A stretch of 64,000 nt of DNA. It comes from an uncultured delta proteobacterium. GTDB lineage: Bacteria > Myxococcota_A > UBA9160 > SZUA-336. Position 1 is the stretch's first letter. Each line of letters begins with the position of its first letter. Under the pieces are notes generated by a model. It was not told where the DNA came from, ran no database searches, and saw nothing but the letters and a program-made list of their open reading frames with translations. Positions 28,431-37,947 of this stretch are shown here, one piece after another. The stretch is from contig CAVPHD010000012.1 of NCBI GenBank assembly GCA_963704165.1, positions 1-64,000 of the forward strand. The letters run 5' to 3'. Position numbers and translations under genes: made by a program.

Positions 28431-29306
28431 TCAGCGCTGGCAATGCGGGCAGAAATGACTGCTCCGCGCGCCGATCACGATCCGCCGGATCGGGGTGCCG
28501 CAGACGAGGCACGGCTGGCCGCCGCGCGCATAGACCCGTCGCTCGTCCTGGTAGGCACCGTCGGCGCCATCGGGCGCGAGGTAGTCGCTGATCGACGATC
28601 CACCGGTCTCGATCGAGCGCAGCAGGACCCGACGCGCAGCCGTCGCGAGCGCCTCGCAGTCCCGGCGCGAGAGTCGACCGGCGGCGCGACGCGGCCGAAC
28701 CCGGGCCAGAAACAGCGCCTCGTCCGCATAGATGTTGCCGATCCCGGCGATCACGTCCTGCGCGAGCAGGACGCTCTTCACCGGCACGCGGCGCTTGCGC
28801 GTCGCTTCGAAGAGCTCGGCACCCGTTGCCTCGAGGGCGTCGACGCCGAGCCTCGCGATGCGCGGATCGCTTTCTCCCTTCTCGAGCAGCTTCACCTTTC
28901 CGAACTTGCGCACGTCGCGGAAGATCAGCTCGGCATCTCCGTCGTCGAACGCGAGCCGCAGGTGCGTGTGCGCGTCGGGCCGGAAGCGCGCCTGCTCGTC
29001 GGGCGCGAGGGCGCCGCGCGTCGCGGCGGAGAGCAGACGAATCGAGCTCGCGTTCCCGGTGAAGAGCTGCCCCGACATGCCCAGGTGCAAGAGCAGGCGC
29101 CGCCCGTCGCAAAGACCCGCGAGCAGGTACTTCCCGATCCGCTCGAGTCCGACCACGCGTGCGCCCGGCAACTCGCGTTCGAGTCGCGCGGGCGGCGTGA
29201 GGAAGAAATAGCTCGGTCGGGTCGTGTGCACCTTCGCGATCCGCCGGCCGACGAGAGAGGGAGCGAGCTTTCTGCGCGTGACCTCGACCTCGGGGAGCTC
29301 CGGCAT
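28431..29306 (-). CDS. mutM: Formamidopyrimidine-DNA glycosylase
   Basis: MPELPEVE, HLGMSG, GIGNIYADE, C-terminal Zn finger. Confidence 0.95.
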   Translation of the reverse strand: MPELPEVEVTRRKLAPSLVGRRIAKVHTTRPSYFFLTPPARLERELPGARVVGLERIGKYLLAGLCDGRRLLLHLGMSGQLFTGNASSIRLLSAATRGALAPDEQARFRPDAHTHLRLAFDDGDAELIFRDVRKFGKVKLLEKGESDPRIARLGVDALEATGAELFEATRKRRVPVKSVLLAQDVIAGIGNIYADEALFLARVRPRRAAGRLSRRDCEALATAARRVLLRSIETGGSSISDYLAPDGADGAYQDERRVYARGGQPCLVCGTPIRRIVIGARSSHFCPHCQR

Positions 29307-29355
29307 GTGAACAGCTTCCTCCCGGGCATCGCTTCGCGCTAGGGTGATCGACGGA

Positions 29356-31155
29356 ATGAAGGAACGGGTCTTCGGAATCGAGACGGAGTACGCACTGATC
29401 TTCCATCCGCGAGGATCGAAGACGACGAAACCCACGAATCTCGAGCTGTACCGCCGATTCGAGTCCGCGCTGCTCGGGCGGGTGCGCACGCTCCCGCACG
29501 GCTTCACCTGGCTTCGCGAGAAGGGCGGCCGATTCCTCGAGAACGGCGGCACCTTCCACTACGAAGCGACGGCCGAGGATTTCGAGAACGGACTCATCGA
29601 GATGGCGAGCCCCGAGTGCCGCGACCCGTTCACCCTGCTCGCGCACGAGCGCGCGAAGGACGAGCTGGTCGAGGAACTCTGCGACGACGTGAACCGTCAG
29701 CTCGAGCTCGCGGGCTTCCGCGGCGAGGCGCGCGTGGGGAAGAACAGTGTCGATAGTCAGGGACACACGCTCGGCTCGCACGAGAGCTACTGGGTCGAGG
29801 ATCCGCTCGGCGCTCTCCGGCTCGCGCTCTTCGTCCCGGTCTGGCTCGGGCTCTGGATCGTGTCGTTGCCGGTCGTGGCCTGGCTTCTCGTGCTCCGAAT
29901 CGGCCTGCTCGCGCTCGTGCTCGGCGTGGGCACGATCCTGCTCGGCGCGGGTGCGCTGCTCCGCCTGGTGCGCCCTGCTCTCGGTCAGCGGCTCTTCGCC
30001 TGGATGGAGCGATTCGCGCGCGAGCTGGAGCAGCATCCGGGCGAGCTCGCGCGGCGCGTCCAGACCCTGGCCGCGCCGCTCTACCCGCTCATGCGCCTCC
30101 ACTCTTTTGTGTACGATCGATTCCACTTCCTCGCGATCCGCCGCGACCTGACGGCATTCCTGGTGACGCGCACGCTGTACACCGGCGCGGGCGAGCTCGG
30201 CTTCGACGGCGGGCCGCTGTTCCGGCTCGCGCAGCGACCTCCGTTCCTGAAGGCCCTGGCGCGCATCTTTCCCGACGACGACGCGCGACCGCTCTACGAG
30301 ATGCGCGATCTGTTCTTCCAACCCTGGTCGGCGCTGCGCACTCGACGACGGCTCCACCTGTTGATCGGCGACGCGAACATGTCGGAATGGGCGCAGGCGC
30401 TCCGCGTCGGCGCGACCTCGCTCGCGCTCGAGGTGATCGAGGCGGGCACGCCGCCGGGTTGGCCGGTGCTCGCGCGACCGCTCGAGACCCTGCGGGCGAT
30501 CAATCTCGATCCAGATCTCGACGCGACCCACGAGCTGGTGGATGGAACGCGCGCGAGCGCGCTCGAGATCCAGCGGCGGATTCTCGCCTTCGTGCGCGAG
30601 CGGCTCGAAGCCGATCCCACGCCCCTCGAGAGCTGGAAGGCGCGCGTGATCGAGATGTGGCAGGAGACCCTCGACGGCCTGCGACGCGATCCCGACTCCC
30701 TCTCGGATCGCATCGACTGGCTCGCCAAGCGCCGGCTCGTGCTCGCGGAGCTACCCGAGCCCGAGGACCGTGCGGCGCTCCGCGCACGCGGCACCGACGT
30801 GATGAGCGACGGCCCGACGCTCGGCGAAGCCGACCTTCGCCTCCGCGATTGCGCGTTTCGCGCGCGGCGGATCGACCTTCGCTTTCACGAGCTCGGTCCG
30901 CGCGGCGGCGCGAGGCGGCTCGAGCGCCTAGGGCGCCTACGGCGGATCACGCGGCCCGAAGAGGTCGCTCGCGCGCGTACCGAGCCGCCCGTCGACACCC
31001 GAGCCTTCGCGCGCGGGCAGGCAATCAAGTTCGCCCACGCGAACGCGGTCTCCGGCCGGGCGGCCTGGGACCGGGTGCGCGTCGGAAAGCTCGGCCGCCA
31101 GAAGCTGCGCGACCCGCTGGACAGCGGATCGGCCCCGGTCTTCGACGATTCCTGA
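29356..31155 (+). CDS. PafA/Dop (Pup-ligase) family protein with an internal transmembrane insertion
   Basis: [76 protein letters not shown]. Confidence 0.88.
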
Positions 31156-31194
31156 GGGCCGGACTCGGGCGGGGGGCTTGGCTACGTTCGGGGA

Positions 31195-31482
31195 ATGAAC
31201 ATCACCCGCGAGACGGTGCTCTACGTCGCCCGGCTGGCGCGCCTTCGACTCGAGGACGAGGAAGTGCCGAGGATGCAGCGCGACCTCGATGCGATCCTCG
31301 ACTACGTGGCAACGCTGCGCTCGCTCGACACGACCGGAGTTCCGCCCACGACGCACGTGCTCGAAATCGCGACGCCGCTGCGCACGGACGAGGTTCGCGG
31401 CGTGCTGCCGGTGGCCGAGGTGGTTCGCAACGCGCCGCAGCACGACGAGAGCTCGATGATCGTGCCGAAGGTGCTCGAGTGA
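31195..31482 (+). CDS. gatC: Asp/Glu-tRNA amidotransferase subunit C
   Basis: [24 protein letters not shown]...VPKVLE. Confidence 0.93.
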
Positions 31483-32951
31483 ACGATCCGTGGAAGGCGG
31501 GGCTGGGCGAGCTCGCGCTGCAGGTAGCGAGCGGCGCCGTCTCGTGCCGCGAGATCGTCTCCGCATCGCTCGCCCGCATCGAACGCCTCGACGGAGAGAT
31601 CGGCGCTTTCCTGCGAGTTCGCGGCGAAGCCGCGCTCGCCGAGGCGCGCGCGGCGGACGAAGCCCGCGCCGCAGGCCGGGCCCGGTCGCGGCTTCACGGC
31701 CTGCCGATCGCGGTGAAGGACATTCTCGCGTCACCGGAGTTCGAGACGACCTGCGGCTCGCGCATCCTCGCGGGCTTTCGCGCGCCGTACGAGGCGACGG
31801 TGCTGCGTCGGCTGCGCGACGCGGGTCTGGTGGTGATCGGCTCGACCAACATGGACGAGTTCGCGATGGGTGGATCGACCGAGAACTCGGCCTGGAAGAA
31901 GACGAAGAACCCGTGGGATCCGACGCGCGTCCCCGGTGGCTCGTCGGGCGGAAGCGCGGCGGCGGTGGCAACGCGGTTCGTGCCCGCCGCGCTCGGGACG
32001 GACACGGGCGGCTCGATCCGCCAGCCTGCGGCACTGTGCGGTGTCACCGGGTTCAAGCCGACCTACGGCCGGGTCTCGCGCTACGGCCTGGTCGCCTTCG
32101 CAAGCTCGCTCGACCAGATCGGCCCGATCACGCGCTCGTGCTCCGACGCCGCGCTCCTGCTCGGCGTGATCGCGGGTCACGATCCGCACGACGCCACCTC
32201 GTACCCGGATGCGGCACCGAACTGGCTCGCCGCGCTGACCGGCGACGTCGATGGCCTGAGGATCGGCATCCCGCGCGGGTTCTTCGACGGCGAAGGCGCC
32301 GATCCCGAGACGATGGCGCGAGGACGCGAAGCGCTGCGCGCGTTCGAGAGCCTGGGGGCGAAGACCGTCGAGGTCGACCTTCCGAACAGCGCCTTCGGCA
32401 TCGCCACGTACTACTTGATCTGCACCGCCGAGGCCTCATCGAACTTGTCGCGCTACGACGGCGTCAAATTCGGGTTCCGCGCCAGGAGCGAGACGCTCGA
32501 CGAGATGTACGAGAAGACCCGTTCGGAAGGATTCGGCGCCGAAGTCAAACGACGCATCCTGCTCGGCACCTATGTGCTCTCGGCCGGCTATTACGACGCC
32601 TACTACCGGAAGGCGCAGCAGGTGCGGACGCTGATCCGCCGCGACTTCGAGCGGGCGTTCGAGGGTTGCGATCTGATCGCGACACCGACGACGCCGGGAC
32701 CGGCGTGGCCGCTCGGTGAGCGGGTCGACGACCCGCTGCGGATGTACCTGGCCGACGTCTACACGGTGACTGCGAACCTCGCGGGTCTGCCCGCGCTCTC
32801 GATTCCCTGCGGGGTCACGGGCGCCGGGCTTCCCGTCGGCGTGCAGCTGATCGGACGGCCGCTCGACGAGGCGACGGTCCTGCGCGCGGGCGATGCGTTC
32901 CAGCGTCGGACGGCGTTTCACGAACTCGTCCCCGCGGAGTTCGCGCGTTGA
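31479..32951 (+). CDS. gatA: Asp/Glu-tRNA amidotransferase subunit A
   Basis: [58 protein letters not shown]. Confidence 0.95.
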
Positions 32952-36090: not shown

Positions 36091-37947
36091 TTGGAAGTCC
36101 TGATCGTCGAAGACAATCGAGCGCTCGCCCGGTCGCTCGCGCATGCGCTCGAGCAAGCCGGCTACAGCTGCCGTCAAGCCCACGACGGCATCGCTGCGCT
36201 CGCGGCCGTCGGCAAGGCCGCCCCTGATCTGATCCTGATCGATCTGCTGCTGCCTCGAAAGGACGGGCAGAGCGTGATCGCGACGCTCCACGCCGCCGAC
36301 GCGACGCGCAGCATCCCGATCATCGCGATGAGCGGAGTCTTTCGCGGAGCCGATCCGGCGAAGAGCGTCATCAACGCGGGTGCTCGGGCGTTCCTCGAGA
36401 AGCCGTTCGAGATCGCGGAGCTTCTCGATCGGGTCTCGCGCCTGATCGGTCGGCCGATCGCAACCAAGACCGAGCCTTCGGCCGACGCGCTCGATCTCGC
36501 GAAGGTGCCGGCGATCGAGGTGCTCTGGAGCGCGATGCAGGCTCGCACCACCGGCGCGGTCCACTTCGAGTTCGGAAAGCGCCACAAGGTCGTCATCCTG
36601 GATGCGGGCCGACCCCTCGCGGTGCGTTCGAACCTGGCGCGCGAATCCCTCGGCCGGCGGCTTCGCGAGGCCGGCATGATCGACGAGCAGATCTTCGAAG
36701 TGGCGCTGCGGAACTCGAAGGCGACCGGAAAGCGCCACGGCGAGGTCCTGGTCGAGATGGGTGCGATCGGAGAGCGCGAGCTCGATGCCGCGCTCGCGGC
36801 GCAGTCGGCCGACAAGCTGCTCGACGTCCTCAGCTGGAGCGAAGGCCGCGCGTGGACACAACCCGGTGTACGGTCGATGAGCCTGTCTTCGGAGCTCTCG
36901 GGATGGACGCCGCGCGGGACGGTTCTCTCCGGGGTCGCTCGCGTGCAGGCGGCGATGATCGCGAAGCGCCTCGAGCCGTTTCTCGACTGCGAGGTCTCGC
37001 GAGAGAACCTCCACCTCGAGGACGATGAGAACACCGGCCCCGCGGCAGAGCTCTGGAATGCGCTCGATCGGCCGCAGCCCGTTCGGAGCCTGATGGGAGC
37101 GCACGCACCGGCTCTGTATGGGCTCTGGCTGATCGGCGTGCTCGACCTGCGCGCCGGCGGCGCAGCCGCGCCAGCGTCGCTTCCGGGCGTGGGCGCCAGC
37201 GCCGTCGAGGTCGAGCTGGAAGCGAAGCTGAACGAGGCGCTCCGCTCGTTCGAGGGCGCAAATCACTTCCAGGTTCTCGGGCTCGACACGAACGCGAGCG
37301 ACGACGACGTGCGCACGGCGTTCATGGCACTCGCAAAGGTCTTCCACCCCGACAAGGTCGGCCGGCGTGCACCCGGGCTCACGGAGCTCGCGGGTCGCGT
37401 CTTCACGCGCATCGCCGAGGCGAACGACGTGATCGGGCGCGCCGACGCGCGCGCAGCCTACACGCGCAAGCTGCAGGGCAGGCAAGACGCCTCGCTGGAT
37501 CGTCAGGCGGTGACTCGAATCCTGACCGCCGAGCAGCAGTTCCGGCGCGCGGAGGAGGCAGTCCGGAGAAAGGAATGGGACTCGGCACTCGAGAGCGTGC
37601 GCTGGGCGCTCGACCTCGACCCCGAGGAGGGAGAATTCCACTCGCTGCGCGGCTGGGTCATGTTCCTGAAGCAGCAGAACGAAGGCGGCGGCGATCCCGA
37701 GGCAGCGGTCGCACACTTGAAGCGAGGCATCGCGCTCGCTCCGCAGTCGCCCACCGGCTACTTCTACATCGGCCAGATCCGGAAGGCTTGCGGAGATGCG
37801 GCCGAAGCGGAGAGAATGTTCCGCAAGGCGATCGAGGTCCGGCCCAATCACGTCGATGCGCTGCGCGAGCTCCGTCTCATGCAGCTTCGACGGACCAAGG
37901 GCGAGGACACGATCGCGGGAAAGCTCTTCGGGAGGAAGAAGAAGTAG
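36091..37947 (+). CDS. Multidomain REC - DUF4388-like - DnaJ(J) - TPR protein
   Basis: N-terminal receiver (VEDN, DLLLP, EKPF), SNLARESLG segment, J-domain HFQVLG...FHPDK, C-terminal TPRs. Confidence 0.8.

Follow-up and report, generated by a model that had tools for sequence, protein, structure and literature searches.

A putative membrane-anchored enzyme of the Pup-ligase family without an adjacent tag gene, in a deltaproteobacterial genome that carries a complete Pup-proteasome operon

In this study, a stretch of 64,000 nucleotides from an uncultured delta proteobacterium (the window) was investigated around a gene of the Pup-ligase family. The gene lies at 29356..31155 on the forward strand and encodes an enzyme of 599 aa (P0001), delimited by its reading frame, Pfam and homologues; the ATG at 29356 agrees with the homologue starts, and an in-frame GTG is present at 29344. 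Both the frame and the ordered PafA/Dop motifs listed by the original prediction were confirmed, and the Pfam Pup_ligase search it had proposed returned PF03136 over residues 4-574 (268.4 bits, E 1.6e-79, gathering cut-off 25; profile positions 1-440 of 441 covered). The divergent fpg/mutM gene upstream (28434..29306, reverse strand) leaves only 49 nt between its start codon and that of the enzyme, so an upstream tag gene has no room here. Downstream, gatC and gatA (31195..32951, forward strand) begin 39 nt after the enzyme gene; this synteny is conserved within one family only and is not counted as part of the enzyme system. A search of 29150-31400 gave neither a sigma-70 promoter nor a terminator. 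The neighbours are housekeeping genes and give no target protein. At 36091-37947, a protein of 618 aa was also observed, which combines receiver, DUF4388, DnaJ and TPR domains. The enzyme had been described as an orphan, which holds for the flanks examined (21.7-38.9 kb of the window) but not genome-wide, as a complete Pup-proteasome operon lies on contig C5.

Within the protein, the N-terminal half of the catalytic cradle (29374..29793, forward strand) harbors E9, E11, E70, E82, T138, H142 and E143, placed in register with residues named in PMC8599861, PMC7947786 and PMC5952411. The C-terminal half of the catalytic domain and the small C-terminal domain (30127..31116, forward strand) contain R294, R311, R317, W324, R331, R332, H334, D339, R549, W571, R573 and R575. 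Between them, after core strand 4, stands a predicted membrane anchor of about residues 149-257 (29800..30126, forward strand), which exceeds the canonical enzymes by approximately 110 residues, near the 120 or so extra residues first estimated. Matches to the solved PafA and Dop sequences are interrupted at residues 148-256, and the spacer from the strand-4 motif to LxTR has a median of 123 aa in close and in distant insert-bearing relatives alike. The predicted hydrophobic stretch of about 50 aa after SHESY was found at residues 157-203 (29824..29964, forward strand), with a Kyte-Doolittle 19-mer maximum of 2.61 and one charge, R181, at a central polar position that is Q, R, L or P across the family. 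The run displays conserved P161, W163, W167, S/T170 and P172, and was detected in 120/120 homologues (query counted) among the matches listed from 240 relatives. In the 116 aligned homologues among these matches, no indel was observed within 146-198, and 39 members carry a 13-residue insertion at 198-209.

Since the run has a low hydrophobic moment, is Arg-rich on both sides and is followed by a return arm that is basic and amphipathic (mean hydropathy -0.4 to 0.3, moment 1.1-1.35), both ends of the insert are likely cytoplasmic. The 47 residues have length for at most two membrane crossings. AlphaFold modelled the enzyme with a pLDDT of 92.3 and a pTM of 0.92, giving a continuous helix at 153-205 and amphipathic return helices at 207-226, 228-238 and 242-256; the sister-clade protein P0131 was modelled with helices at 149-173, 175-197, 204-222 and 226-255, the run being broken by one residue only, and both models were built without a membrane. 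Of the transmembrane hairpin originally proposed, the hydrophobic run is retained, but the two models give a long helix with a return arm and no short hairpin. Region 151-264 matched long helical hairpins at Z 6-8, which is uninformative on function. We regard a tight transmembrane hairpin as somewhat probable, and a re-entrant or in-plane anchor as a real possibility short of an even chance. Precedents that would fit the two topologies are CetA, whose run of 36-38 residues with a polar residue at its centre makes a true transmembrane hairpin (available text of PMC2628428), and PglC, which was predicted to span the membrane but is re-entrant, a topology that comes with a break at a proline and with amphipathic helices (available text of PMC6133551).

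To place the residues, the PafA and Dop of this genome served as a bridge, with alignment and motif counts in place of superposition; three partial proteins were removed to give a first alignment of 117 rows and a fourth to give the 116 rows of alignment A1, all from among the matches listed. The comparison of the AlphaFold model with PafA and Dop that had been suggested revealed the same fold, the best structural matches being Dop 9cku at Z 43.6 (rmsd 2.2 over 378) and PafA-Pup 4bjr at Z 39.8 (rmsd 2.9 over 435). In the 116 aligned homologues among the matches listed, the equivalents of the five Mg-binding side chains that the available text of PMC8599861 lists for Dop (E9, E11, E82, H142 and H334), as well as R294, R311, R317 and R332, were observed at 100% each. 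The cradle of glutamine-synthetase type is complete, with GhExE, the strand-3 Glu, the strand-4 His and the strand-5/6 Arg and His. As predicted, the catalytic Asp of LYLD (PafA D57/D64) is replaced, by Glu70 in 116/116 of the aligned homologues among the matches listed. Glu was also found in 98% of 59 other insert-bearing enzymes, and Asp in 100% of 23 insert-free enzymes; by this alignment, the change is a trait of the whole insert-bearing lineage and not particular to the window protein. The HPEY and RDEPH histidines are likewise replaced, as had been noticed, the latter position being mostly Trp; the available text of Cui et al. (PMC8599861) has the RDEPH His of Dop stacking on the nucleotide-pocket Trp. 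Moreover, Ser/Thr stands for the ATP-binding Arg of NGAR, and Asp149 for the Arg130 substrate contact (the R137 position).

Comparatively, the window clade keeps more canonical residues than its insert-bearing relatives. Position 138 is Thr in 93%, resembling the canonical Ser/Thr (95%), and no residue exceeds 16% there in other insert-bearing enzymes; its equivalent, Ser119, lines the Pup-tail pocket in the available text of PMC5952411. Between the 15 clade rows and the 59 other insert-bearing rows, R317 stands at 100% versus 3%, D318 at 100% versus 5%, R331 at 100% versus 6% and H334 at 100% versus 32%, the alignment of the distant insert-bearing group being uncertain near 311-334. At positions 144, 292 and 295, the canonical residue was lost in the window clade only. 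The 23 insert-free enzymes share 87 conserved columns, of which 62-70 are matched by the clade rows and 48-68 by the other insert-bearing rows; overall identity to canonical enzymes is no more than 0.326 in the clade, against 0.306 in the others. The three substrate-contact regions named in the available text of bioRxiv 10.64898/2026.04.10.717840 carry invariant clade-specific residues in the aligned homologues among the matches listed.

On the family models, the enzyme scored 188.1 bits for TIGR03686 (PafA) and 182.7 bits for TIGR03688 (Dop), below the equivalog cut-offs of 551.3 and 492.3, respectively. By these cut-offs and its sequence features, it is classed as a PF03136 member that is neither PafA nor Dop. 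The beta1-beta2 spacer, taken at first as PafA-like and short, turned out to be intermediate, with 52 aa (51-56 in the clade) against 39 in the genome's own PafA and 71 in its own Dop. The Dop-loop of 40-65 residues before strand beta2 is absent, and a shorter conserved segment with L46, P47, R54 and K56 is found there. In the 116 aligned homologues among the matches listed, F60, the equivalent of PafA F47, is kept in 99%, and R573 and R575, the equivalents of R442 and K444, in 100% and 96%. The available text of PMC10465538 attributes target recognition by PafA to the basic residues R137, R207, R218, R442 and K444, and four of these five are kept (R317, R331, R573 and R575), with Asp149 at the R137 position. 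The alpha-loop is the main ligase/hydrolase switch in the available text of Hecht et al. (PMC7947786); of the PafA-specific alpha-loop residues given in its Table 1 (H174, W176, E177, S180 and others), none was matched in the window enzyme. Its loop shows F297 (93%), A/S/T300 and I304 (84%) in the 116 aligned homologues among the matches listed, a hydrophobic pattern that is Dop-like, with a modelled strand at 298-303 that is also present in the sister-clade model. The equivalents of R317 and H334 hold the catalytic phosphate in Dop (available text of PMC8599861). The sequence signs for the direction of the reaction are mixed, those of a ligase being F60, R573, R575 and the lack of a full Dop-loop, and those of Dop the alpha-loop and strand 298-303.

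With reference to distribution, 240 relatives were found among 7,997 scored candidates, the 120 listed sharing 53-87% identity (query aside), and a profile search of 1.84 billion representatives disclosed many insert-bearing proteins of 540-680 aa. A quick IQ-TREE analysis of 45 rows, with the insert removed, a midpoint root and several rows of odd composition, placed 30 insert-bearing rows on one side against 15 insert-free rows (SH-aLRT 100), with the 7 window-clade rows as a clade (100) inside the insert-bearing side; FastTree with 97 rows gave the same grouping less firmly. The window protein shares a branch (SH-aLRT 100) with insert-bearing enzymes that adjoin a tag gene and belong to the same phylum. 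The clade was recorded in 31 out of 201 class genomes, chiefly in two families, and in 5 out of 12 genomes of this genus. Against three same-genus orthologues, silent changes in the core exceed residue changes (130-154 vs 84-95), and on this pattern the clade gene is an accessory gene under purifying selection. Canonical PafA/Dop genes are near-universal in the order (a PF03136 gene in 31 out of 32 genomes), and PF03136 genes occur in most sampled class genomes. A metagenome scan of 4 out of 64 parts recovered mostly canonical enzymes, with the insert at 4 out of 80 loci. One clade gene (G441:C6:130904-132713) is in two pieces, possibly through a frameshift or an assembly error, and another genome (G014; C31, C32, C10) has a pair of canonical pup genes along with a second PafA-like gene.

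This genome (G000) contains three PF03136 genes, two of them in an arc-dop-pup-prcB-prcA-pafA operon on contig C5 (G000:C5:102476-109024; L007:6477-13025), between ftsK-lolA and mreB, and the third, the window gene, unlinked on contig C12. Since the full operon with PafA and Dop lies on another contig, the window gene is a third paralogue. The Pup of C5 has 85 aa, matches Pfam Pup and ends in QRGGE. A genome scan for small reading frames with Pup-like endings and for prcA, prcB and mpa, as had been proposed, recovered this Pup and the full operon; 34 reading-frame ends in the genome are Pup-like, and only the C5 Pup is tag-like. The original prediction was to fall if a standard Pup-proteasome operon lay elsewhere and the enzyme used its Pup as an ordinary PafA does: the operon was found, and the enzyme may use its Pup. 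The tag had been called unknown, a description that the scan does not bear out, as the only Pup-like tag found is the canonical one.

Comparison of homologue neighbourhoods, also proposed earlier, detected no upstream tag in the clade, at 34 distinct loci (3 of them with less than 200 nt upstream), and one at 9 of 9 distinct other insert-bearing loci. We built a PxGGE tag profile from the eight tags of such tag-pair genomes, and in 301 genomes it recovered only its eight training tags (E 4e-14 or better, by construction), the next match being at 1e-3; this match, in G012, was rejected as a shadow frame of a longer gene whose end is not GGE. In the clade genomes, the profile matched in 0 of 24 at E 0.01, 11 of these reaching 90% completeness or more at a contamination of 5% or less, and among the 56,656 reading-frame ends of this genome the best match reached only 0.56. 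As a positive control, the untrained tag of L150 was recovered at E 2.3e-5; completeness of this genome is 84%, and a tag diverged beyond the reach of the profile would escape it. A DNA pattern for PxGG[EQ]-stop in 32 genomes, which also admitted TGG, gave background-level counts and was set aside. Canonical Pup was found in 26 of the 30 other genomes of the clade, the four without it being 58-75% complete, and in none of the 8 tag-pair genomes. Because the canonical genes are near-universal in the order, this co-occurrence comes close to a single evolutionary event and is weak evidence.

Other candidates near the gene were rejected. A short frame ending in FGE that overlaps the 3' end of the enzyme gene is absent from three same-genus loci, and GatC, which ends in Glu, adjoins at 19 of 34 loci, all of one family, a family-level synteny. 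Of the 13 loci without gatC for which upstream DNA is available, 9 have a rhomboid gene in that DNA, co-oriented with the enzyme gene, and the gatC and rhomboid arrangements are each probably one ancestral arrangement. In the second subclade (L017, L018, L096, L240, L244, L253-L256), this long rhomboid-domain gene is often accompanied by a peptidase C26 gene downstream on the opposite strand. The enzymes of L234, L235 and L237, all from a single genus, have Gly-Glu at their own C-terminus, a trait unconserved in the clade.

Outside the class, a distant insert-bearing enzyme was disclosed in eight of 301 phylum genomes, each with a single PF03136 gene, no canonical Pup, and a gene of 50-65 residues ending in (V/I)PxGGE directly upstream of the ligase. 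A ninth tag-bearing insert locus, L150, is metagenomic, with a tag of PxGGE type. Altogether these private tags (L098-L104, L106 and L150, directly upstream of insert-bearing ligases) have about 50-65 aa and end in (V/I/A)PxGGE; the four tested gave no Pfam match. They are near-neutral, with a net charge between +1 and -3 over the final 30 residues, against -8 for canonical Pup. Since the tag-pair genomes have one PF03136 gene beside a Glu-ending tag, ligation is suggested as the inherited reaction. At three of the eight tag-pair loci, a gene for a YhhN-family membrane protein follows the ligase (L099:2811-3863, L102:3183-3821 and L106:554-1189), with an NAD-binding protein gene upstream; Pfam confirmed two of the three, all belong to one family, and no YhhN neighbour was seen in the window clade. 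Apart from this lineage, L149:1315-4500 (G102:C42) harbors a second, divergent pair of insert-free Pup-ligase-family genes flanking a small gene that ends in QTGGQ and adjoining a sensor-kinase-like gene, and G306:C161 has a similar extra pair.

With regard to function, we tentatively favour, at slightly less than an even chance, a membrane-anchored Pup ligase that would use the resident canonical Pup in trans on membrane-near proteins, as read from sequence and models. The insert would hold the catalytic cradle at the cytoplasmic membrane surface, and ATP and Mg would serve to phosphorylate Pup on its C-terminal Glu; as this Pup ends in GGE, deamidation would be unneeded. Glu70, standing for the catalytic Asp, would activate a lysine on a membrane or membrane-bound target, and the resident Dop and ARC-proteasome would then handle the conjugate. 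As to its origin, a pair of tag and membrane ligase, in a lineage that also had the Pup-proteasome, may have given up its private tag gene and switched to the resident tag. This reading draws support from the lack of a detected private tag, the canonical Pup of the genome and the retention of the canonical R317, D318, R331, H334 and Thr138. Against ligation, the alignment sets the Dop-like alpha-loop, the Asp-to-Glu change, the loss of the NGAR Arg, Asp149 at the Arg130 contact and the three canonical positions lost in the window clade only. Moreover, the canonical residues kept by the clade may simply be ancestral, and two of them, R317 and H334, are as necessary to Dop as to PafA. The membrane-tethered isopeptide or amide ligase first predicted therefore keeps its PafA/Dop fold, its insert and its intact-looking active site, but loses its unknown tag.

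The opposite reaction is also conceivable, in which a membrane-anchored depupylase or editing enzyme would remove Pup from membrane conjugates and shield membrane proteins from a promiscuous soluble PafA. The alpha-loop and its strand, the higher structural match to Dop, the retention of R317 and H334, mostly lost in the sister enzymes, and the soluble PafA already present in the genome are all consistent with it. We nevertheless consider it unlikely: the full Dop-loop is missing, F60, R573 and R575 are of PafA type, and the lone enzymes of the tag-pair genomes are best read as ligases. The sister-clade model has the same strand, and its relative L150 adjoins a Glu-ending tag, so that the modelled strand would be no mark of a hydrolase.

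Likewise unlikely is a ligase of the same anchoring with another glutamyl donor, be it a diverged private tag, another protein with a C-terminal Glu or a small glutamyl compound. Near-neutral private tags accompany all other insert-bearing enzymes that have context, and a switch to canonical Pup would demand real rewiring; the clade-specific invariant residues in the three substrate-contact regions, as delimited in the available text of bioRxiv 10.64898/2026.04.10.717840, and the lack of linkage to pup at all loci seen point the same way. On the other side stand the tag profile, which had a working positive control and matched in none of 24 clade genomes, and the family-bound synteny of GatC, the neighbour that ends in Glu.

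Still less probable is a catalytically weak or dead membrane adaptor binding Pup or pupylated proteins. The substituted catalytic Asp, the missing NGAR Arg and the patchy gene distribution would agree with it, but metal ligands and four active-site arginines are invariant in 116 proteins down to 53% identity, among the matches listed, and silent changes outnumber residue changes. A tag is conjugated to a lipid in the case of Atg8, and YhhN acts on ether lipids. By analogy, an Atg8-fashion transfer onto a membrane lipid amine is hinted at by the Asp-to-Glu change across the membrane-anchored lineage (98-100%; 100% among the matches listed), which may shift the nucleophile position, and by the YhhN neighbours; it is the most improbable of the readings, as the arginines by which PafA contacts protein targets (R207, R218, R442 and K444 in the available text of PMC10465538) are kept as R317, R331, R573 and R575, and the YhhN loci belong to one family outside the clade.

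Returning to the ligase that would use canonical Pup, a wider proposal can be made. In eukaryotic cells, ER-associated degradation offers a comparison for the tagging and proteasomal destruction of membrane proteins. A bacterial route of this kind, in which a membrane ligase, captured from a tagging pair free of the proteasome and rewired to Pup, would mark inner-membrane proteins for ARC extraction and the proteasome in a Gram-negative lineage, is doubtful, though the upstream rhomboid protease gene of the second subclade would agree with a role in membrane quality control. To our knowledge, Pup systems have been described with one ligase, PafA, for all targets; were the route true, two ligases differing in reach would serve a single Pup system, contrary to this rule. 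Should canonical Pup be used, the enzyme would be the easiest member of the insert-bearing lineage to assay, its tag, eraser, ATPase and protease being of known types in the same genome; membrane proteins could be marked for the proteasome, and a membrane-tethered proximity ligase would be on offer. Should it not be used, an orphan enzyme under strong selection is left.

Membrane-type Pup ligases as such have been described. Iyer, Burroughs and Aravind in 2008 (PMC2588565) reported ligases of Plesiocystis and Rhodopirellula with four predicted transmembrane segments right after core strand 4, adjoining pup and a membrane-protein gene and unlinked to proteasome genes, and suggested the modification of membrane proteins; the homologues of planctomycetes and deltaproteobacteria mentioned in the original prediction are these. 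The available text of Hecht et al. (PMC7947786) uses the single planctomycete homologue as an outgroup. In the literature searched, with most subscription journals outside the search, we found no report of a tagless membrane paralogue beside a full Pup-proteasome and no bench test of membrane-anchored Pup ligases, and a search for Pup ligase with Myxococcota returned no paper.

Compared with PafA (C. glutamicum 4BJR and 4B0T; TIGR03686), the window enzyme shares the fold, the metal ligands, the equivalents of R201, R207, R218, R442, K444 and F47 and the lack of a full Dop-loop, but is only about 30% identical, has Glu for Asp, has lost the NGAR Arg, differs in the alpha-loop, carries the 110-residue insert and has a shorter C-terminus. 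With Dop (9CKU and 4B0R; TIGR03688) it has in common the fold, the Mg ligands, the equivalents of R227 and H241 and the hydrophobic pattern of the alpha-loop, and differs in the spacer (52 against 71), in Glu for Asp, in the PafA-type basic residues of the C-terminal domain and in the insert. Like the ligases of Plesiocystis pacifica and Rhodopirellula baltica, it has an insert right after strand 4, a predicted anchor at the cytoplasmic face and no linkage to proteasome genes; this kinship rests on insert position and gene layout, their sequences being outside the tree. Unlike them, it has no adjacent pup and lies in a genome with a full Pup-proteasome operon, canonical PafA and Dop. Its insert consists of one 47-residue run and an amphipathic return arm instead of four predicted transmembrane segments, and in place of the linked membrane-protein gene its locus has fpg and gatC, with rhomboid at 9 of 13 non-gatC clade loci. 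From the tag-adjacent insert enzymes it is set apart by the more canonical active-site residues that it keeps. In summary, the clade departs from both patterns, one ligase per Pup system and a pair of tag and membrane ligase without a linked proteasome, being a membrane-type enzyme without its own tag in genomes with a complete Pup-proteasome; the membrane insert itself was already known, and what differs is this tagless branch inside Pup-proteasome genomes.
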